A DNA stretch of 60,687 nt, taken from Patescibacteria group bacterium (GTDB lineage Bacteria; Patescibacteriota; Minisyncoccia; Phycocordibacterales; UBA2100). Every line of letters begins with the position of its first letter. Within the stretch, counting starts at the first letter, position 1. The position numbers and the translations under genes are program-made. Below the pieces are notes generated by a model. It had not been told where the DNA came from. It did not search any database and worked only from the letters and a program-made list of their open reading frames with translations. Positions 23,123 to 59,101 of the stretch are shown here, one piece after another. The stretch covers positions 1 to 60,687 of the forward strand of contig JBBTXY010000019.1 of the NCBI GenBank assembly GCA_038062075.1. The letters are read 5' to 3'.

Positions 23123-24169
23123 CTATTGATTTGTGAACGGATCAGTGCCGAAGATAGTCGCATTTCCCTGTATGAAGGTCAGCTGCCACGAGCCTGTGGC
23201 GCGCAGAAAGATGTCGGTGAGGCTCGTGAGCGAGAGCTCGATCGTCGCAGGGCCGGTGTAGTTGTTCGTGGTGATGAGGAGCGTGTGTGGTGCCTTTGGA
23301 TCGGGTGTGACGTTTTGGTCGTTCACGCGCCACACGTAGGTGAGCGACTGGTCGCGCGGCGACTCGACGTGGGCAAAGTAGGCAAAAGCAACAACTTCCT
23401 CTTCGGTCTCCGTCGTACGCGCGCCTGAAACGAGCGCGCGGTGGAAGAGCACCCCGAAGAGCGGATGGTTTTCGTAAAGCTCGAGCGAAGGATCCACTGA
23501 TTGAATGCGAGTGCGCGCTTCCCCGCGCAGCGTACCGTCAGTCGACTCTGCGACGACGCGGATATCGTCGGTCCCGAAAAGTGTTGGGCCGGGGAATGAG
23601 AACGATGACCTGCCGCGTCCGGAGGACATCCTGGTGTTCCCTTTGTACCACGTGTAAATGATGGATGTGTCGGGAAGAAGCGTGCCATTCGTTTGTTTGA
23701 ATCGCGCGAGCGCCTGCGCGCGGATAATTGCGCTCGTTCCCGGGAGCGCACGTCCCTCATAAAAGGGAGGCACATAGGAATCCGACTCCCACAGAAGATC
23801 GACCTCGGTGGGGCGGATCGTCGCTTGTGCGCTTCCGATAAGGCCCGCCTCATCCTCCGCAACGACCTCGACAGTCGTGCGTGAGCCAAGTGCTCCTGCG
23901 GTGACCGAGGCAGTCGTTACGCCGGTGCCGCGGGCAATTTCTTTCTCGTTCTCGTACCACACGACTTCACTACGATTAAGGTCGAGCCCGTAGCTCTGCA
24001 CGGTGAGACGCACGGTGTCTCCCGACATTGGGTACTCCGGCGTCATCGAGAGTGTAAGCGGCCGCTCGAGCCCCGTGAGTGAGAATTGCGCGCGCGCGGC
24101 AGGCGCATAAGCAAGGGAGAGGAGCGTGCCTGTAATAGTGAGAGAAACGAGAGAGAGGCGTGCGATCAT
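23123..24169 (-). CDS. secreted protein of unknown function
   Basis: Clear signal peptide (MIARLSLVSLTITGTLLSLAYAPAARA), beta-rich and repetitive. Its start overlaps the VirB4 stop by 4 nt. Confidence 0.5.
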   Translation of the reverse strand: MIARLSLVSLTITGTLLSLAYAPAARAQFSLTGLERPLTLSMTPEYPMSGDTVRLTVQSYGLDLNRSEVVWYENEKEIARGTGVTTASVTAGALGSRTTVEVVAEDEAGLIGSAQATIRPTEVDLLWESDSYVPPFYEGRALPGTSAIIRAQALARFKQTNGTLLPDTSIIYTWYKGNTRMSSGRGRSSFSFPGPTLFGTDDIRVVAESTDGTLRGEARTRIQSVDPSLELYENHPLFGVLFHRALVSGARTTETEEEVVAFAYFAHVESPRDQSLTYVWRVNDQNVTPDPKAPHTLLITTNNYTGPATIELSLTSLTDIFLRATGSWQLTFIQGNATIFGTDPFTNQ

Positions 24170-27100
24170 AGCGGCTGCGGGCCAGGCGGGAGCGGCGTCT
24201 GCGGCGGGATGATAGGGGCGCTTGGCGGAGGCTCAAGCGGTGTGCTGGCAGATAATGCCGAAGAAGAAGGTGGCGTTGTAGGAGGAGAGAACGACTGGAT
24301 TGGTGTGGGTGCCGGGGTGGGGATTGATTGAGGTGGAAGAGGCGATGGTCCTGGAGCGATTTCTGGCAGGGATTCGGATGCTGCTTGTTGCGGGACGCCA
24401 CTCATCTCTTTGAGCGCCGCCGCCTGCAGGGTCGCCGCAGCGCTTGAGACTTGGGTTCTCTCTGGCGCGGCAAACGCTTGTTCCGCGTCGAGTTCCGAGG
24501 AGCGCGCGAGTTCTTGTTTTGCCTTTTTGATGGCGAGGATCTGCGAGGGGTCGGACGTGATGATCTGGTCTTCGGTGTACGAGGCGATGACCTTAATGGC
24601 GACGTGCTTCAAGCCGGCGAAGAAAATCCCCTCCCCCACATCCGACTCCAACAACAAATATTTCTCTTCATCCGACAACTTAAACGTTTGCTGCACAAGG
24701 TCGACGGATGTGGGGGATTGGCGCAAAAGTATTTGGATCGATGAGTTGGTGATCATGGCAGTCCCGTAGGGTGAGGTCAAAAAGTCGTTCACGTCCTGCG
24801 TGATCGTTGAGAGACCGAGGTAGTATTTGCGGCCGCGCTTCGCGATACCGAAGAGGAAGGAAGCGGTGTCCTGCGATTTCATCATCCACCACGCCTCGTC
24901 GATGACGAGTAATCTCTTGCGCAGCTCTTTGCGCACCGTATTCCAGATGTGGTGCGTGATGATGTACATCGCGACGGGCTTCAGGTCATCTTCCATGTCG
25001 CGCACGGAAAAGACCACGAGCTTTTTGTTCATGTCGACGTTCGTCGGGCGGTTCATGAAACCCGACCAGGTGCCCTTCGTATACTTCGAGAGGCGCGCGA
25101 CCAAGGAGTCCGATCCCTCCATGCCGGAGAGGACGAGTTCGAAGTCGGAGAGAAGGGGCGGCTCGACGGACGCGAAGTTGGCTTCCGCAGTGATGTCTTT
25201 GAGCGCATAGGTTTCCGTGATTGCTCTGTCGATGACTGCGTCTTCTTCAGGCGTAAGGCCGCCGAGCATGATGCGGAAGAGGCCTACAAGCGTGATGATG
25301 TTGTTGCGCAGGATGTCTCCTGGACTTTCGTCCTCACGTGGAATGGGAAGATCGAAGGGGTTGATGTGGTGCTCGGAGGAGAGTGAAATATTAAAGTAGC
25401 GGCCGCCGACGGTCTCTGCAAGGTATTCATATTCACGTTCCGGGTCGATGACGATGACTTCCGTGTCGAACATGAGGGAGCGCAAAATTTCGAGTTTCGT
25501 GGTGTACGAGTTGTGTACGAACATGCCGCCGTGCCCTGCGAGAAACACCTCATCATCGACCGTAAGATCGTAGACGTACTTGTCTTTTTTGTTCGGCTTT
25601 TTGACGATCGACACGATCGGGTCCCAAAAAAGGTCTGCATTCGCGAGTGTCTTGAAGGTGGCAACGATTTCCTCGACGCGGTTCAGATTTTGCAGCGTGC
25701 GATGATACTCGTGCACGATGAATTGCGCCGCCGTGCGCAGGAGTTCGTACGACGAATTGTCACGCGTGCCATTGAGCGTTCGCGCCAAGTACTCATCAAA
25801 CCCGTTTGCATGAACATTAACTCGTTCGACGCCTTCCGAGATCATTCCCTTCAAGTCGTCGACCGTTTTAGGGGCATCTACCCCTGCAGTCTCGAATATT
25901 TTGAGCGCATTTTTCGTTCGTGGCGGCATACCTTGCTTTACGGTAAACCACGAACTGCTCAGTTTTTCGATAAGTGTGCGATTGAGCTCGCGATCCTCGT
26001 CGGCTTTTTTGACAATCGCTTCTACCGTCGGTAGATCTTGGAGTTTCTGCATGAAAGGATACAAGTCTTTGAACCTTTGCACGCGTGCCTCCATCATCTC
26101 GACGAGTTTTCCAAGCCGTTTCGGCGAGAGATCGTGTCCTTGCTTGAGTGCGGAAAAATCTGAAATGTCCGAGAGCTGCGTGTCAAAAAGCCCCGCCAGC
26201 TCCTGTGCAAGCGGCTGCAGTCCCGGGACGATGTCGCAATTGGTGTTTTCTACTTTCGTGGTAAGCCGCGCGAGCGCTTCTTTTTTGCGTGTTGAGATAA
26301 AACCTATGTGCTCCTGGAACTTGCGGAGATTGTCCTGTCCCGAGATGCTCATCTGCCAAAACGTCCGCTTGCGACCGGTTTTTGCGTATGTTTTCTGTCG
26401 TCGGTGAATCCGCACGATGATACCGAAGTAGTAGCACAGATAGGAAAGGTCTGAAATGAGTGCGCGTGATTTTGAAAGTGCAGTGACTGCGGCGCCATCT
26501 ACTCCACCGTCACCCTCGAAATAGGCACGGAGGTATGCAGCGACTGCTTCTCGGGGCGCATCGAATATGGGTCCCGCTACGTGCTTTTTGTGAGAGAGGC
26601 CTGCGCCTCGAATACCATGCACATAGTCGCGGAACGCGCTGCTGTAAATTGCAATCCACCGTGGATGGCTACCATGTCGAAGACTGAGTGCTGCGCAGCA
26701 GCGTTTAATGTCGGCAAGCCCCTCGGGGTCTTCATTACTAATAATAATAGAGCGGTCTGTGGTGCTTCCTTCGGCAGCGATCCAGCCAAGAAGAGCGCCT
26801 AAATCTGGAGACATCGGCGTCAGTGTTTGTGTGGCAGCAACCGTGATTGACCGTGGAAGCGGGATATACTCTCCCTCTTTCACATCCTCGCTTTTTGCAG
26901 CAACAACTCTCCCATCTCGCAAAACAAGCATATTGTGATCTGCTGTGGTTGTAATTTCGCGACCGCTTTTTGTTGTGAATGTGTAGTATGTGTCAGTGGC
27001 ATCCTTACGCGCTGCGACCGACACTTTACTCCAACGCCCTTTCATGTGCTTGTCGAAGCTAAATACTTCCACGTCGGGATCGATAACCCCCTCAAGCTCC

Positions 27101-28014
27101 TCATCAATTTGTGTCGCACCATGCTTCCGAATGAGTGCGTCGATATACAGGCCAATTTCTACGTTGCGAACCACTCCGCGGTCTCGCATCAGAACGCGTT
27201 CCTTGACAAATATCGATTTTCCCGCTCCGCTTTTTGCGAATGTGACCGAATTATAGTTCTCCAAACTAAATCGATCGAACAAAATCAACGACGAATTGTG
27301 TCGGTTGATGCCGTAGAGGATGCCGCGATCCGAGGTGAGGTCGAAGGAGATGAAAGGGAAAATAGATGAGAGCGGCGCGGAATTAAGCTTCGTGTGCACG
27401 TTGAGTTCATCAGTTGCGAGGGGCAAGACCGAGCGGAATCCTTGCTCCTGCTGGAAGAGTGCCGGGCGGATGTACACAAGACGGCTCTCAAGGATGGAGC
27501 GGATTTCTGATTCCACCTTATCAATATCCTCGCGCGTCGAGCCGTAAATGGTGAGGTAGAGACCGACTTCGAAAATGCGCTCTTGCGCCTGCTGGAGGGA
27601 GTCGCGCAGTTTTTCAAGGTCCGCGTAGGCGGTGTCGAGGATTGGGTCGCGCACCATGCCCTTCTCTTCGCGCGTCGCGATCTGGCTCTGCACCTCGGCG
27701 ACCTTTTTCTGGAATTTACGGAGCATCTCGTTGGTGTCCATTGGGTGGATGTAGATGGAAACATCGAGGACCTTGTCCATATTAATGATGGGTGCGAACC
27801 ACCCCGTGGTGAGAAATCTGGGGTAAGAAATGACGAAGAACGTGCGCGCGATTTTTTCGCCGAGATCAAGTTCGCGCGGGGATATCTTCAGCGCGTGCGG
27901 GGCGATAACGTCCTGAAGGCCGAGGACGCCCGTGCGATAGATTTCTTCCGGAAGGACCGGCAAGACCGTCGCCGGTTCGGCCGTTTTTCTGGTGAAGAAA
28001 TCAAAGAGTGCCAT
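24166..28014 (-). CDS. VirB4/TrbE-family type IV secretion ATPase, interrupted by an intein; Pro-rich C-terminal tail
   Basis: VirB4 N-domain pattern (ISYPRFLTTGWFAPII), Walker A KSGAGK|S split at residue 266/267, Walker B LLVIDEAWWMM, downstream GLSTITQD. The last ~90 aa are Pro/Ser-rich. Confidence 0.9.
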   Translation of the reverse strand: MALFDFFTRKTAEPATVLPVLPEEIYRTGVLGLQDVIAPHALKISPRELDLGEKIARTFFVISYPRFLTTGWFAPIINMDKVLDVSIYIHPMDTNEMLRKFQKKVAEVQSQIATREEKGMVRDPILDTAYADLEKLRDSLQQAQERIFEVGLYLTIYGSTREDIDKVESEIRSILESRLVYIRPALFQQEQGFRSVLPLATDELNVHTKLNSAPLSSIFPFISFDLTSDRGILYGINRHNSSLILFDRFSLENYNSVTFAKSGAGKSIFVKERVLMRDRGVVRNVEIGLYIDALIRKHGATQIDEELEGVIDPDVEVFSFDKHMKGRWSKVSVAARKDATDTYYTFTTKSGREITTTADHNMLVLRDGRVVAAKSEDVKEGEYIPLPRSITVAATQTLTPMSPDLGALLGWIAAEGSTTDRSIIISNEDPEGLADIKRCCAALSLRHGSHPRWIAIYSSAFRDYVHGIRGAGLSHKKHVAGPIFDAPREAVAAYLRAYFEGDGGVDGAAVTALSKSRALISDLSYLCYYFGIIVRIHRRQKTYAKTGRKRTFWQMSISGQDNLRKFQEHIGFISTRKKEALARLTTKVENTNCDIVPGLQPLAQELAGLFDTQLSDISDFSALKQGHDLSPKRLGKLVEMMEARVQRFKDLYPFMQKLQDLPTVEAIVKKADEDRELNRTLIEKLSSSWFTVKQGMPPRTKNALKIFETAGVDAPKTVDDLKGMISEGVERVNVHANGFDEYLARTLNGTRDNSSYELLRTAAQFIVHEYHRTLQNLNRVEEIVATFKTLANADLFWDPIVSIVKKPNKKDKYVYDLTVDDEVFLAGHGGMFVHNSYTTKLEILRSLMFDTEVIVIDPEREYEYLAETVGGRYFNISLSSEHHINPFDLPIPREDESPGDILRNNIITLVGLFRIMLGGLTPEEDAVIDRAITETYALKDITAEANFASVEPPLLSDFELVLSGMEGSDSLVARLSKYTKGTWSGFMNRPTNVDMNKKLVVFSVRDMEDDLKPVAMYIITHHIWNTVRKELRKRLLVIDEAWWMMKSQDTASFLFGIAKRGRKYYLGLSTITQDVNDFLTSPYGTAMITNSSIQILLRQSPTSVDLVQQTFKLSDEEKYLLLESDVGEGIFFAGLKHVAIKVIASYTEDQIITSDPSQILAIKKAKQELARSSELDAEQAFAAPERTQVSSAAATLQAAALKEMSGVPQQAASESLPEIAPGPSPLPPQSIPTPAPTPIQSFSPPTTPPSSSALSASTPLEPPPSAPIIPPQTPLPPGPQPL
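25510..27216 (-). mobile_element. 569-aa intein with a LAGLIDADG homing-endonuclease domain, inserted in the VirB4 P-loop
   Basis: Ser1 (SIFVKERV), block B TTADH, LAGLIDADG motifs LLGWIAAEGS and YLRAYFEGDGGV, and C-terminal VYDLTVDD...GMFVHN followed by +1 Ser. Joining the exteins restores GAGKSYTTK. Confidence 0.8.
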
Positions 28015-28019
28015 AGTGT

Positions 28020-28703
28020 TTATGCTTGCGTGAAGCCCTCGACGGGCATCGGCTTTCCTTCCTCGCCGGGGTTGAAGAGCTTGTAGAGGAGTTCGATCGC
28101 CTCTTCGGTCCCCAGCTGCACCGTGCGCACGCCACAGCGCACGAGGCCTTGTTGCACGATCGCGATACGCTGCTCAAGCTGCGAGACTTTCTCTTCGAAC
28201 GTGCGGTTCGTCTCTTCAGTGCTTCTCTTACTTGCTCTCCCGAATGGGAGCTTGTCTTTAATACTTCCTCCTTCGGCGATGGATGAGATGATGGCCGGCG
28301 AATATGGGACGACGACGAAGAAATTTTTGGTCATGATGTTCGCCGCTTCCGTGAAGCTCTTGATGAACTCAATGTATTCGCGTATTTGGATGCGCATCAG
28401 ATCATCAAGCTGGTTCTTGTAAGCAACCTCCAGGGTCGCGATGTACGGGCGGATATCGAGCATGCGCGATTGCACGAAGATCTGGCAGGAGAAATCCAGC
28501 GAATTGAGGAAATTCTGAAATTGCACGATAAAAGCGGTCTGCTCGTCTTCGGATTTGAGCGCGAAGTTGAGGGACGACGCGAGGAGGATAGCGCGCAAGC
28601 TTCCGTCGCGCATAACGACGATGCCATCACGCACTTCAGAGACGGGGACGAACCCCTGGGTGGTACGGTTGCTGGCGCGAATGGTTGAGGCTTCGGAGGG
28701 CAT
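28020..28703 (-). CDS. soluble protein of unknown function, resembles a stand-alone VirB4 N-terminal domain
   Basis: 227 aa with no TM segment. The pattern VSEVRDGIVVMRDGSLRAILLASSLNFALKSEDEQ...FQNFLNSL...QIFVQS parallels the N-domain of the adjacent ATPase. Gene gaps are 5-6 nt on both sides. Confidence 0.4.
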   Translation of the reverse strand: MPSEASTIRASNRTTQGFVPVSEVRDGIVVMRDGSLRAILLASSLNFALKSEDEQTAFIVQFQNFLNSLDFSCQIFVQSRMLDIRPYIATLEVAYKNQLDDLMRIQIREYIEFIKSFTEAANIMTKNFFVVVPYSPAIISSIAEGGSIKDKLPFGRASKRSTEETNRTFEEKVSQLEQRIAIVQQGLVRCGVRTVQLGTEEAIELLYKLFNPGEEGKPMPVEGFTQA

Positions 28704-28709
28704 AGATTT

Positions 28710-29216
28710 TTAGCGCACGATGGCGTCTTTGGCGGTGCGTACCGGTGCGACGATGTCGGGAAGGGGCGAAGCATTCTCCCGATCTACCGTGTCAGCAGTC
28801 CCTGCCGCGATGCGCTCCTTGATGTCGAGGCTCCAGGCGAGCTCGTGCAGTTTGCTTTCAGAAAGGTGCGGCACGTAGGGAGCGGCCGCTGGCGTTGTTG
28901 GCGCGGACGAAGCGAGTTTCTTCTGCGTCTCAAGAGCCTCTTCATTGCTCCAGAGGTAGAGCTTGCTCTTTATGAGGTAGAAGAATCCGTGCTCGAGAGC
29001 CGCGATGAAGGGTTGTCCGTTGTAGGTAAGGAAGGCGAGGGCCGCGCCAAAGCCGAGGAGGGCAAGGATAAGGGGACCGGCGACGTAGACAGGAAGCGTA
29101 CGCCAGAGCATGTAGCTTAAGCCCGCACTCCCCGCGAGGTAGACGAACTGCTTGAAGGTGAGAGGGCCAAAAATCTTGTCCTCGACCTCAATGAACTGTG
29201 GCACTTGAAACTGCAT
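28710..29216 (-). CDS. PrgI-family (VirB3-like) membrane protein
   Basis: The N-terminus MQFQVPQFIEVEDKIFGPLTFKQFVYLAG followed by two TM helices matches my recollection of PrgI-family proteins of Gram-positive-type T4SS. Confidence 0.6.
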   Translation of the reverse strand: MQFQVPQFIEVEDKIFGPLTFKQFVYLAGSAGLSYMLWRTLPVYVAGPLILALLGFGAALAFLTYNGQPFIAALEHGFFYLIKSKLYLWSNEEALETQKKLASSAPTTPAAAPYVPHLSESKLHELAWSLDIKERIAAGTADTVDRENASPLPDIVAPVRTAKDAIVR

Positions 29217-29220
29217 GGGA

Positions 29221-29675
29221 TAGCTGTCAGCTTTCAGCTTCTAGCTTTCAGGAAAAACGCATCCAACAAGCGCTAGTTGCTAGCCTTCAGTCCATTTATC
29301 ATACCATGCAACATACGGCAGACTTCCGACAAGAGTTGGCTGATTTCACTAAATTTGCTGTCATTGCAATACGAGAGCTTGTTGCTGATAATAAGTTGTG
29401 TTTCGAGTTCCGTGCCGGATCCAAGAGCCGTATGAAGAAAGTTTACAAAGTCTTTTGAGGTGCTGCGGCTTCGTCCTTCGGCAATATTCGATGGAATTGA
29501 AATGGCCGCCCTGCGCATTTGAGAAGCGAGTCCATACACTTCTCTCTGTGGGAAGTTTTCCGTGAGTTTGTATACCTGGATAACCAGCTCGATGGACTTT
29601 TGCCACACAAGCAGATCTTTGTATGACTGTGCTGTTTTCATGCCCGAAAGCTGAAAGCTGATACCTGAAAGCTAC
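29221..29675 (-). mobile_element. IVS-like cassette: four-helix-bundle gene bracketed by AGCTTTCAG/CTGAAAGCT inverted-repeat arms
   Basis: Left arm 29221-29252 (tAGCTGTCAGCTTTCAGcttctAGCTTTCAGg). Right arm 29645-29675 (cgaaAGCTGAAAGCTGatacCTGAAAGCTac). The right arm overlaps the stop codon of the upstream gene. Confidence 0.45.
29273..29641 (-). CDS. four-helix-bundle protein (23S rRNA intervening-sequence protein / S23p family)
   Basis: YKDLLVWQKSIELVIQVYKLTENFPQREVYGLASQMRRAAISIPSNIAEG...FLHTALGSGTELETQL is the characteristic pattern of this family. Confidence 0.85.
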   Translation of the reverse strand: MKTAQSYKDLLVWQKSIELVIQVYKLTENFPQREVYGLASQMRRAAISIPSNIAEGRSRSTSKDFVNFLHTALGSGTELETQLIISNKLSYCNDSKFSEISQLLSEVCRMLHGMINGLKASN

Positions 29676-30253
29676 TGTGGTGGTTCCCTATATGGATCAT
29701 CAACCACGGACTTTCGCTCAATCGATGCTTCGCCGGGCTTGTAGGCGCCCGATGCGGGCGCGCGGGCGACGGTTACTTCCGGCGGTGGTGCAGGAGGAGT
29801 CGCAGGTACAACTGGCGGCGGGAGGGGTTGTTGTACCGTTGCGGGAAGCGCTTCTTGTGTCCCTCCTCCCAAGATCTGCGTTCGAGCAGCCTCTACTCCA
29901 CTTACGGTTTCAGCCTTTGCTTCCGGATGCTCGAGCTGGCGCTCGAGTTCTGCTCTGATGGGTTCGAAGACGGTAGAGTTTATACTCTCCGCGAGCGCGT
30001 GAGCAATATCAAGTGTGACCCCCACTTCCCTCATGAGGTTTTTCTCAAAGTTCTCCACCGCTTCGATGCCAAGAAGGGTAAGCATCACCTCATTTTCAAG
30101 TGATTCCCATTGGTCCACATGTAGTTTGTGTGTATCTGCTAGTTGTCGTAGTCGCTTTTGGACGTCAGTTGATGTAATAGCGTCTTGAACCACCTTAGGC
30201 AGTTTCGAGAAGCGCTCCTTTATCAAAGTACTAAGATCTGATTCCTCGGGCAT
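29672..30253 (-). CDS. hypothetical protein with a Pro-rich C-terminus (operon member)
   Basis: 193-aa ORF with a helical N-terminal half and a PPPVVPATPPAPPPE tract. No family recognised. Confidence 0.45.
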   Translation of the reverse strand: MPEESDLSTLIKERFSKLPKVVQDAITSTDVQKRLRQLADTHKLHVDQWESLENEVMLTLLGIEAVENFEKNLMREVGVTLDIAHALAESINSTVFEPIRAELERQLEHPEAKAETVSGVEAARTQILGGGTQEALPATVQQPLPPPVVPATPPAPPPEVTVARAPASGAYKPGEASIERKSVVDDPYREPPQ

Positions 30254-47255: not shown

Positions 47256-47714
47256 TCACGTGCCGTCCTTTTCCGCGACGTGCGCGGCAAAGCCACCGCC
47301 TTGTTTGTAGGCGACAAGCTTTTTGACAAATTCCTCTGGCGTCATGATGTTGATGCCTTTCAAAGGCCGCAGCGAAAGGATGTCATCGTCGCCTGTTATG
47401 AGGGCGTTCGCCTTCCCCTCGAACGCGGTTTCAATGACCATATTGTCTCGTGGGTCGCGGCAAATGTGCAGTGTTCCAGGAATCTCGACCTGGTCAGAAG
47501 CTTGGATATATGTCGCAAGAAGTGCGAGCCGCTCGTTCCGCGGAGTATACGCGTCGAACTTCGAACTGGACATGACGCGGCCGTATTCGCGTATCATCGC
47601 ATCTGAAACGAGCGGCGTATGGAAACGCATGGTCAGCACCAGGGCACTGCGCGGCACGCTCTCATCGAACAATGCGGCGCTGACGAGAACGCTGGTGTCT
47701 ACAACGACCCGCAT
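47256..47714 (-). CDS. PIN-domain type II toxin (VapC-like)
   Basis: MRVVVDTSVLVSA... with the acidic residues of a PIN fold (D6, E.., ITGDDD). Confidence 0.8.
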   Translation of the reverse strand: MRVVVDTSVLVSAALFDESVPRSALVLTMRFHTPLVSDAMIREYGRVMSSSKFDAYTPRNERLALLATYIQASDQVEIPGTLHICRDPRDNMVIETAFEGKANALITGDDDILSLRPLKGINIMTPEEFVKKLVAYKQGGGFAAHVAEKDGT

Positions 47715-48043: not shown

Positions 48044-48643
48044 CTACTCCATCCCCATTTCTTTTTCCATCTCGTCTGGCATTTCGGTGGGGGCGTTGTG
48101 AGTACCGCGGGAGCTGGTGCGGCGAGAGCTCCCGCGGAATCCGAGGAGATAGCGCCGCGGGTCCTCATCGAGGTCAAGGAAATCATCCGCCGCTTCTTTC
48201 AGCTTACTTGAGGTCGACCGGCCGAAGGAGACCACCTCGACCTGGCAGCCGCCGTGGGTCTGGAGGTATTCCACGAGGGGGACGAAGTCGCCGTCCCCGG
48301 TAACGAGGATGATGGTGTCCAGCTTCGGGGAGGCGGTAATGGCGTCGACAGCAAGCCCGACATCCCAATCGGCCTTTTTGGCGCCTCCGAAGAATATCTG
48401 TAATTCTTTTGTTATCATCTCGATGCCAATTTTCCCCAGGGCCTCGAAAAAGGCTTTTTCCTCGCCGCTCTCCGTCGTCACGGAATATGCGCGGGCGCGG
48501 ATAAGGCGCCGCCCCGCGACTGAATCCTTGAGAACGTTGCCGAAATTGACGCGCGCATGATAGAGATTCTTCGCGCTATGGTAGAGATTCTGCGTGTCGA
48601 TAAAGACGCCGACGCGCTGTTCAGGGTGTTTGATAATTGACAT
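48044..48643 (-). CDS. NYN-domain (LabA-like) protein
   Basis: VGVFIDTQNLYHS...DWDVGLAVDAI...IILVTGDGDFVPLVEYL is the NYN/LabA pattern. Confidence 0.8.
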   Translation of the reverse strand: MSIIKHPEQRVGVFIDTQNLYHSAKNLYHARVNFGNVLKDSVAGRRLIRARAYSVTTESGEEKAFFEALGKIGIEMITKELQIFFGGAKKADWDVGLAVDAITASPKLDTIILVTGDGDFVPLVEYLQTHGGCQVEVVSFGRSTSSKLKEAADDFLDLDEDPRRYLLGFRGSSRRTSSRGTHNAPTEMPDEMEKEMGME

Positions 48644-48790
48644 AGCTTTCAGCTGTCAGCTTTTAGCTTTCAGCAATAAAATACCAAATCTAATAAAAAC
48701 GTATGCAAAGCGCATGAATGCGCTTTCTAAGTATAACTGACGGGGCGGTTTCCGCTTTTCCTGAAAGCTGATACCTGAAAGCTGACAGCT
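48644..48790. repeat. 'empty' AGCTTTCAG-type inverted-repeat bracket (no ORF inside)
   Basis: Left arm 48644-48674 (AGCTTTCAGCTGTCAGCTTTTAGCTTTCAGC) and right arm 48761-48790. The 23-mer CTGAAAGCTGATACCTGAAAGCT (48761-48783) is identical to 29651-29673. The ~86-nt interior contains the hairpin AAAGCGCAtgaaTGCGCTTT. Confidence 0.6.
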
Positions 48791-49055
48791 ACTTCTTCAG
48801 TCCGAGCTTCCTGGTCAAGGCGCTATAGGCGCGCTTGTTGGTGGCCTCGAGGTACTTCAAGTGCTTCCGGCGGTCGGCGACAAGGCCGAGAAGCCCGCGG
48901 CGGGAGCTTTTGTCCTTCCGGTTCTTATCCAAATGGGCAGAAAGTTCCTCAATGCGACGCGTCAAAATAGCGACCTGCACCTCGGGCGAACCCGTATCGG
49001 TGTCGTGGCGCGCTGCTTTCTTCATCTCGTTCTCCTTCTTACGCTTCGTCAGCAT
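48789..49055 (-). CDS. rpsO: 30S ribosomal protein S15
   Basis: The start is taken at MLTKRKK. DTGSPEVQVAILT...HLDKNRKDKSSRRGLL...RKLGL matches S15. Confidence 0.9.
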   Translation of the reverse strand: MLTKRKKENEMKKAARHDTDTGSPEVQVAILTRRIEELSAHLDKNRKDKSSRRGLLGLVADRRKHLKYLEATNKRAYSALTRKLGLKK

Positions 49056-58713: not shown

Positions 58714-58769
58714 CCTGTCCGGAAGATTAGGACGTGGCTCTACTCTACATGAATTGAGCATTTCATACA

Positions 58770-58791
58770 AAAACTGCCGTACGGCAGTTTT
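58770..58791 (-). terminator. rho-independent terminator of the HU gene
   Basis: AAAACTGCCG-ta-CGGCAGTTTT palindrome. On the minus strand it is followed by a T5 run. Confidence 0.6.
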
Positions 58792-58825
58792 GTATCGCTA
58801 GGAGCTATAAGCTGAAAGCTCGAAG

Positions 58826-59101
58826 CTATTTTATTGCGTCTTTGAGTGTCTTCGACGCGCGGAATTTGGGAACGCGCATCGATTTGATCTGAATAGTTGC
58901 GCCCGTGCGCGGATTCCTCCCGGTGCGGCCAGCACGCGTCTTAGCTTCGAAAATGCCGAGGCCCGCGATCGAGACTTCCTCGCCGCGCTTGAGGCAGTCG
59001 GTGATCGTGCTAATGATCGCTTCGACTGCGCGCTCTGCGTCGGCTTTCGTGGAGCCGATGGTTGCATGAACTTTGTCGACCAGATCCATTTTATTTGCCA
59101 T
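58826..59101 (-). CDS. hup: DNA-binding protein HU
   Basis: The start is taken at MANKMDLVDKV. GFGIFEAK-type motif (GLGIFEAKTRAGRTGRNPRTGATIQI). Confidence 0.9.
   Translation of the reverse strand: MANKMDLVDKVHATIGSTKADAERAVEAIISTITDCLKRGEEVSIAGLGIFEAKTRAGRTGRNPRTGATIQIKSMRVPKFRASKTLKDAIK

Follow-up and report, generated by a model that had tools for sequence, protein, structure and literature searches.

Open reading frames (ORFs) of the S23p family are carried by intervening sequences (IVSs) in the 23S rRNA of Leptospira as well as of Coxiella burnetii, and in the roughly 30 years since the family and the rRNA IVSs became known, neither a function nor a mechanism of mobility has emerged. 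The C. burnetii IVS, located in helix 45, has a length of 428–444 nt, a terminal stem of 28 bp and the S23p ORF in its loop, and two or three tandem GACAGAT heptamers, whose copy number varies between strains, stand beside the S23p start codon (PMC4990558). Cleavage by RNase III within the stem was mapped by RACE (rapid amplification of cDNA ends), and the ORF is reported as one in decay that is probably not translated; short IVSs without an ORF exist, and IVSs are thought to be horizontally acquired (PMC4990558). Genes of the 23S_rRNA_IVP family have furthermore been noted within cas operons (PMC3936711) and in rRNA insertions of the Candidate Phyla Radiation (CPR; PMC11270868). Here, we describe an S23p gene enclosed by inverted arms of heptad repeats in a stretch of 60,687 nt (contig JBBTXY010000019.1 of a Patescibacteria group bacterium), which is referred to as the window. 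The element lies between two genes of an operon that resembles those of type IV secretion systems (T4SS). In our judgement it is probably an IVS-type mobile cassette that occupies a junction between the genes of a protein-coding operon, with arms that would be processed and with S23p as its putative own factor.

Heptanucleotide repeats form a second line of observations, equally unexplained. The cyanobacterial STRR (short tandemly repeated repetitive) sequences are further heptanucleotide tandem repeats of unknown function. TAACTGA heptamer repeats occur in Beggiatoaceae, Cyanobacteria and Bacteroidetes, and are reported to end about 1 nt before start codons (MacGregor 2015, PMC4679880), and 4–5x heptanucleotide elements are listed as candidate regulator sites in the Geobacter genome (PMC2700814). 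In the searchable literature library, no general link between S23p genes and inverted heptad arms was found, the Coxiella paper alone pairing both, and no description was found of S23p cassettes that are polymorphic at operon junctions.

Architecture of the S23p cassette

The S23p gene (29273–29641, minus strand) encodes a four-helix-bundle protein of 122 aa and is housed, as the original prediction had stated, in the only long gap of the T4SS-like operon, all genes of which lie on the minus strand in this region. The gap of 455 nt separates the gene of a 193-aa protein without a family match (U193, 29672–30253, minus strand) from a gene of the PrgI family (28710–29216, minus strand); the remaining junctions of the operon are 5–6 nt long or overlapping. 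Two inverted arms bracket the S23p gene, 32 nt each, 81% complementary and 390 nt apart. In gene sense, the 5′ arm (29643–29674, minus strand) reads TAGCTTTC AGGTATC AGCTTTC AGCTTTC GGG and the 3′ arm (29221–29252, minus strand), its complement, reads CCTGAAAGCTAGAAGCTGAAAGCTGACAGCTA. A spacer of 20 nt (29253–29272, minus strand; CGCTTGTTGGATGCGTTTTT) connects the S23p stop codon with the 3′ arm, and the related cassette at locus L126 has a comparable one. The complete order on the gene strand is CAG TAG-CTTTC AGGTATC AGCTTTC AGCTTTC GGGC ATG, followed by the S23p gene, TAG, cgcttgttggatgcgttttt, CCTGAAAGCTAGAAGCTGAAAGCTGACAGCTA, tccc and the ATG of the PrgI-family gene. The TAG stop codon of U193 (29672–29674) provides the first three bases of the 5′ arm, within the first heptad, in agreement with the predicted overlap of arm and stop codon. 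The S23p ATG follows 1 nt past the 5′ arm and 8 nt past the final complete heptad, no Shine–Dalgarno motif precedes it, and 4 nt lie between the end of the 3′ arm and the PrgI-family ATG. While the repeat arms were correctly foreseen to bracket the gene, their unit had been read as a 9-mer. The actual unit is a heptad, (T)AGCTTTC, AGGTATC or AGCTGTC, i.e. AGCT[T/G]TC and variants. The motif AGCTTTCAG occurs 10 times in the window as compared to 0.6 expected occurrences, and 0 of 100 shuffles reached 10.

Folding of the region resulted in a single long stem formed by both arms around the ORF, as had been proposed (minimum free energy, MFE, of −142.7 kcal/mol; z −3.0). The arm–arm stem is seen in the MFE and centroid structures alike, and the duplex energy of the two arms is −41.7 kcal/mol. 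With terminal inverted repeats and a stem of more than about 20 bp around the insert, the element shows the IVS-like architecture that the original prediction had described, and the S23p ORF in the loop and the heptameric repeats beside the start codon are those of the Coxiella type. As the window element lies outside rRNA, one defining feature of rRNA IVSs is missing: its neighbours are protein-coding, four tRNAs are all that Rfam reports for the window at the gathering threshold, and the cassette matches no family at E ≤ 1. PADLOC defence models gave no match. Outside the arms no direct repeat was found, so the element does not have the make-up of an insertion sequence (IS) or a miniature inverted-repeat transposable element (MITE), i.e. 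a transposase or terminal inverted repeats with a target-site duplication.

The protein scores above the curated cut-offs of its family models. PF05635 (23S_rRNA_IVP) matches over model positions 1–106 of 106 with E 4e-40 (136.7 bits, cutoff 33.8), and TIGR02436 (“four helix bundle protein”) with E 1.8e-39 (134.3 bits, cutoff 24). The nearest solved structure is XCC0516 (2GSC; E 3.3e-24), deposited with five chains. A homopentameric toroid of four-helix bundles is characteristic of the family, and PMC4990558 states the pentamer, citing Lin 2006. By homology, the window S23p would likewise form a ring-shaped pentamer. The protein is under strong purifying selection (dN/dS, the ratio of nonsynonymous to synonymous substitution rates, of 0.05–0.08). 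When the window cassette is compared with that of L126, synonymous sites are near-saturated (dS 0.87), and the 3′ arms are still almost identical. The accessory protein Avd of diversity-generating retroelements (DGRs) is also a four-helix bundle, pentameric in solved relatives, and works with nucleic acid and a polymerase. The window protein gave weak matches to the bAvd-like family PF22296 (32.2 bits) and to the NCBIfam Avd model (32.4 bits), which would agree with an Avd protein or the remnant of a DGR. Both scores fall short of the curated cut-offs (40 and 80 bits, respectively), the gene is surrounded by T4SS-like genes, the tested ORFs of 338–366 aa are RuvB, DnaN, an M23 peptidase or without family match, and no pair of template and variable repeats was seen, so that the probability of this assignment is close to nil.

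The periodicity of the arms is constant among related cassettes, and their sequence is not. At the orthologous loci introduced below all S23p genes show heptad periodicity in their flanks, with lag 7 as the best lag in 35 of 35 5′ flanks and 33 of 35 3′ flanks, compared to 41 of 400 random windows (Fisher p 1e-30). The heptads themselves vary between cassettes and include AGCTTTC, CTAGCnn, CAGGTnn, AGGCACA, GTAGCnn, GAACAGn, AGGGACT and TCGAGnn. Within each cassette the 3′ arm complements its own 5′ arm, i.e. the arm sequences co-vary, and cognate arm pairs have a median energy of −44.5 kcal/mol versus −29.7 kcal/mol for non-cognate pairs (p 1.6e-7). The median arm length is about 5 heptads. 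Neither the 7-nt periodicity nor the place of AGCTTTC as one of many interchangeable heptad types had been recognised from the window sequence. Selection of the heptads for stop codons in all three frames was considered as well and rejected as too weak: 18 of 46 5′ arms contain such stops against 15.9 expected, which is not significant. For 3′ arms the numbers are 16 and 8.5 (p 0.008).

Presence, absence and exchange at orthologous junctions

A search with the TraC-like protein encoded after the PrgI-family gene (28020–28703, minus strand) provided 80 orthologous operons, which were annotated with the window proteins and an S23p profile. In the window, this gene is followed by that of a VirB4-like ATPase (24166–28014, minus strand; 1282 aa, intein-bearing), and large membrane-protein genes lie upstream in the operon. 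All junction counts refer to distinct junction sequences. Among 60 such sequences of the U193–PrgI junction, 22 contain an S23p cassette, 32 are plain spacers of 23–182 nt, four contain an IS200/RAYT-like gene (RAYT, REP-associated tyrosine transposase; REP, repetitive extragenic palindromic) and two a truncated S23p gene together with another gene. The proposed insertion is borne out by these 32 junctions without a cassette. At the TraC–VirB4 junction (63 distinct sequences), 35 sequences are empty and six harbour an S23p cassette, two of these being assigned by Pfam to a distant PF05635 subfamily; a heptad hairpin without an ORF, about 100–130 nt long, is found in at least 13. At the PrgI–TraC junction, 72 distinct sequences comprise no S23p cassette, 56 empty junctions and nine ORF-less hairpins. 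In the relatives, S23p genes are always accompanied by arms.

Close relatives differ in the state of a junction. Among three operons whose VirB4 N-termini are 92–94% identical, no two agree at TraC–VirB4: the junction is empty in the window, occupied by an AGCTTTC-type cassette in L126 and by a TAGGTnn-type cassette in L133. The S23p protein of L126 is 89% identical to that of the window and has the same arms at a different junction, which supports the predicted mobility; that of L133 is 48% identical. Over 231 pairs, S23p identity is uncoupled from the identity of the host TraC (Spearman rho 0.04, p 0.5). Host pairs with 93–95% identity have S23p proteins with only 49–56% identity and different heptads, as exemplified by L143 and L154 (TraC 95%, S23p 56%), and S23p clades follow the heptad type. 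This uncoupling, together with purifying selection and the preservation of the 3′ arms, shows that the cassette evolves as a unit of its own, which junctions gain, lose or replace and which is inherited independently of the host operon, and that both its protein and its arms are functional and under selection.

These data also bear on S23p as a resident member of the T4SS-like operon, e.g. a regulator or chaperone, with an ordinary attenuator or terminator as arms. The gene is co-oriented with the operon, under purifying selection and shared by 22 related operons at this junction, all of which would be expected of a resident gene. Its absence from 32 of 60 orthologous junctions, its occurrence at other junctions and a phylogeny uncoupled from the host would not, nor would the same family and arm design in unrelated operons (between nrdB and nrdA, cas6 and cas4, cmr2 and cmr3, or parA and parB, see below). 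Moreover, a scan of 28900–30000 revealed no terminator-like site on either strand, so that the arms do not qualify as an intrinsic terminator or attenuator, and the sole promoter-like site in this range is on the plus strand, with none on the gene strand. A resident gene is accordingly disfavoured as very improbable.

Plain U193–PrgI spacers (L134–L209) contain a TTGAC-N17-TATACT motif 6–7 nt ahead of the ATG, and the position of this promoter-like motif suggests leaderless transcripts from empty junctions. A cassette replaces the whole intergenic spacer, the TTGAC-N17-TATACT motif included, rather than splitting it.

Further variants were observed at the same junctions. L143, L150, L154 and L156 have two S23p cassettes at once, at U193–PrgI and at TraC–VirB4 respectively, of different PF05635 subfamilies and with different heptads, often with an ORF-less hairpin at PrgI–TraC. 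The heptad type of ORF-less hairpins often differs from that of the S23p cassette at the same locus. In L167 (2185–2829) and L172 (2583–3357) the cassette is apparently disrupted; of the S23p gene just the last 57 codons are left, together with the 3′ arm, and a gene for a 214-aa protein without an assigned family precedes them. The IS200/RAYT-like Y1_Tnp genes at U193–PrgI (L137, 519–1223; L141, 2743–3438; L166, 2758–3483; L171, 2756–3469) are preceded by REP-like, non-heptad palindromes (TCAAGGGnnCCCTTGA), and in L141 a remnant of an AGCTTTC-type 5′ arm is kept upstream of the Y1_Tnp gene. A different non-heptad hairpin insert of about 64–96 nt, bounded by direct GTGAAC repeats and MITE-like in appearance, separates the stop codon from the promoter-like motif at U193–PrgI in L155, L157, L173, L175 and L181. 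Concerning the neighbouring VirB4-like ATPase (24166–28014, minus strand), its intein contains a LAGLIDADG_3 domain; the ortholog in L130 has 642 aa and is intein-free.

Heptad elements elsewhere in the window and in other phyla

A 23-mer of the cassette, AGCTTTCAGGTATCAGCTTTCAG, had been put forward as a probe for further copies, and an exact second occurrence was found in the window at 48.7 kb. It belongs to an ORF-less element of the same AGCTTTC heptad type (48644–48791, minus strand) between rpsO and a gene with an NYN domain. The original prediction had missed this copy. The 5′ arm of this element (48760–48791, minus strand) is fused to the TAG stop codon of rpsO, its 3′ arm (48644–48674, minus strand) abuts the ATG of the NYN-domain gene, and its interior of 85 nt contains a small hairpin. 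Cross-pairing of its arms with those of the S23p cassette is equal or superior to pairing with their own partners. As the initial ~20 nt of the interior weakly resemble the start of the S23p ORF, they are suggestive, and only suggestive, of a deletion derivative of the S23p cassette. A solo heptad arm is located at 58797–58829 (minus strand; TAGCTTCG AGCTTTC AGCTTAT AGCTCCT AGC), fused to the TAG stop codon of the HU gene; a terminator-like hairpin (58766–58795) lies after it, and no partner arm was found for it. Each of the three arm sets in the window is thus opened by the TAG of the upstream gene. The units are confined to these three places in 60 kb, unlike terminators that would follow most genes. 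The ORF-less element is adjoined by genes with a PIN domain (47256–47714, minus strand) and with the NYN domain (48044–48643, minus strand), both putative RNases.

The generality of the arms was addressed with a pattern scan (AGCTTTCAGN5AGCTTTCAG) of one genome per species, and the figures hold among the matches listed. At least 120 loci were obtained from Acidobacteriota, Planctomycetota, Verrucomicrobiota, Cyanobacteriota, Chloroflexota, Bacteroidota, Omnitrophota and CPR. They represent TCAGCnn heptad arrays, very often with an inverted array within 0–150 nt and mostly without an ORF. Using phmmer and then a broader hidden Markov model, only four S23p genes were found beside AGCTTTC-type arrays in ~0.9 Mb, hence most such hairpins are ORF-less. 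For the converse approach, S23p genes from IMG/VR and from plasmids were picked by their protein alone, blind to arms. On IMG/VR contigs a lag-7 repeat is present in a flank of 33 of 38 distinct S23p genes compared to 8 of 49 control ORFs (p 2e-11), and the flanks are complementary in 31 of the 38, where the heptads are of many kinds. Plasmid-borne S23p genes gave a similar picture: eight of ten have arms of 7- or 8-nt units, the 8-nt units being found in two. Their hosts are cyanobacteria, Gemmatirosa and Azospirillum, and their sites lie between nrdB and nrdA, cas6 and cas4, cmr2 and cmr3, parA and parB and similar pairs. Units of 8 nt were seen in L219, L221 and L237, directly oriented arms in L215, and a promoter-like TAnnTTTG motif between 5′ arm and ATG in Bacteroidota-like copies.

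The position of the arms relative to start codons invites another explanation, in which heptad runs are mainly protein-binding or translation-control sites ahead of start codons, comparable to TAACTGA in Beggiatoaceae, and S23p is merely located there. The 3′ arms of every CPR cassette, and that of the ORF-less element, end 0–6 nt before the next ATG, much like the heptamer repeats that end ~1 nt before start codons in MacGregor 2015, and the 4–5x heptanucleotide elements of Geobacter are candidate regulator sites. In addition, the genome is poor in Shine–Dalgarno motifs: such motifs precede 6 of 54 window genes, against a background of 16%. This explanation leaves aside the complementary arm beyond S23p in 31 of 38 arm-blind cases, the joint movement of arms and ORF between junctions, and the orthologous junctions that work without heptads. 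We regard it as improbable.

Mechanism and relation to known systems

The IVS-type cassette that we favour consists of a 5′ arm of ~4–5 heptads, the S23p gene, a short spacer and the complementary 3′ arm; it takes up the junction from the stop codon of the upstream gene onwards and leaves 4 nt ahead of the following start codon. Upon transcription of the operon, the arms would pair as a duplex of ~30 bp and, by analogy with the Coxiella 23S IVS, the operon mRNA would be processed by RNase III at this stem. Cleavage would release the S23p message, and the start codon of the PrgI-family gene would come to lie close to a new 5′ end. A downstream start so near to a 5′ end fits a genome poor in Shine–Dalgarno sites, in which empty junctions have a leaderless-type promoter. 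The pentamer ring expected for S23p may be the factor that the element provides for itself, acting on the heptad arms. In the six-frame translations of the 60-kb window no RNase III signature was found, which says nothing on the rest of the genome.

Several observations weigh against this reading. Cleavage of such a stem in an mRNA would follow purely by analogy. Between filled and empty junctions no target-site duplication is visible, and no recombinase either, and “mobile” could partly mean allelic replacement by homologous recombination via the conserved flanking genes. The arm mismatches have no sense-strand G–U bias, with 22 sense-compatible versus 37 antisense-compatible transitions and 90 transversions, and a constraint on RNA only is thus not favoured. 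Outside CPR (L213–L266), S23p is antisense to both neighbours in 19 cases and co-oriented in seven, and many non-CPR copies have an apparent promoter of their own between 5′ arm and ATG. An S23p mRNA that starts downstream of the 5′ arm lacks this arm, so that the stem would form only in read-through transcripts of the host or in DNA. Given the absent G–U bias, the frequent antisense orientation and the internal promoters, a role at the DNA level remains a serious rival or complement.

Such a role would make the cassette a hairpin element similar to the “REPtrons” of REPIN/RAYT systems. The arms would be copied or moved as single-stranded or cruciform DNA hairpins by an enzyme acting in trans, ORF-less copies would be non-autonomous, S23p copies would be “masters” encoding a heptad-binding protein, and any RNA processing would be incidental. 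Mobility is common to this account and to the processed cassette, and the difference is where the arms act. Apart from the mismatches and the orientation of S23p in either direction relative to host genes, the accompanying ORF-less hairpin of the same type in the window, the large excess of ORF-less hairpins over S23p copies in other phyla (among the at least 120 loci listed), the correspondence of S23p clades and heptad types and the IS200/RAYT-like genes at the very same U193–PrgI junction in four relatives are in line with a DNA-level element. Conversely, S23p is a helical bundle of 120 aa with no recognisable nuclease or recombinase motif, the window cassette has no Y1 transposase, the RAYT-like genes at the junction come with non-heptad palindromes of their own, ORF-less hairpins are often of another heptad type than the S23p cassette of their locus, and the sole experimentally studied member, the Coxiella IVS, acts at the RNA level. 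We consider a DNA-level element of this kind possible but rather unlikely, and retain the processed IVS-type cassette as the probable explanation.

On a broader scale, S23p proteins and inverted heptad arrays may constitute one widespread, undescribed class of hairpin elements with S23p-bearing autonomous copies and far more ORF-less ones. Classical rRNA IVSs would belong to it, as would S23p genes wedged into cas, nrd, par and T4SS operons and the heptamer repeats of cyanobacteria, Beggiatoa and Geobacter, and the pentamer would read one heptad per subunit, i.e. ~5 heptads per arm. We put this forward tentatively, as a proposal with the balance still against it. The IVS design, a heptad stem around an S23p gene, is not bound to rRNA, behaves as exchangeable at operon junctions and is the general context of the S23p family. 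Three separate curiosities thereby become one testable system. For annotation, it should be noted that operons of genome-reduced CPR bacteria are interrupted by these cassettes and that a heptad array can be taken for a repeat of another class.

Among known systems, integrons and their attC sites are alike in that a promoter-poor single-gene cassette is swapped at a fixed position, with a site conserved in fold rather than in sequence. They differ in that two mutually pairing arms are present here, and no integrase, attI or cassette array. DGR Avd proteins share the fold family of the window S23p, whose scores are below the Avd model cut-offs and which is not accompanied by a reverse transcriptase or a template/variable repeat pair. 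In REPIN/RAYT systems REP sequences flank a Y1 transposase gene, and many non-autonomous hairpins exist. The likeness is considerable: in both cases a small gene lies within inverted short repeats, gene-less intergenic hairpins occur as well, often after stop codons, and repeat type and gene clade vary together. What the repeats enclose encodes a PF05635 four-helix bundle here and an HUH/Y1 transposase there, Y1_Tnp genes being found at this junction only in other loci and with different palindromes, and tandem 7-nt arrays take the place of a single imperfect palindrome. We know of no mobility biochemistry for S23p elements.

The heptamer repeats of Beggiatoaceae, Geobacter and others resemble the arms as intergenic 7-nt arrays of 2–6 or more units, often a few nt before a start codon. 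The phyla concerned are rich in PF05635 genes, and the CTGA units (TAACTGA, MTYCTGA) resemble GCTGAAA of the present arms. Those reports treat the repeats alone, without a link to S23p, and an arrangement in pairs on opposite strands is described only for Geobacter class-3 sites, whereas complementary pairs enclose a gene or a short loop here. The closest counterpart is the Coxiella IVS, with 428–444 nt compared to 455 nt here, a stem of ~28–32 bp, heptamers by the S23p start codon and a PF05635 ORF in the loop. It resides in an rRNA helix and the window cassette between protein-coding genes; RNase III excision is demonstrated for the former and would be expected by analogy for the latter; and the ORF that is said to decay in Coxiella is maintained here by strong purifying selection.

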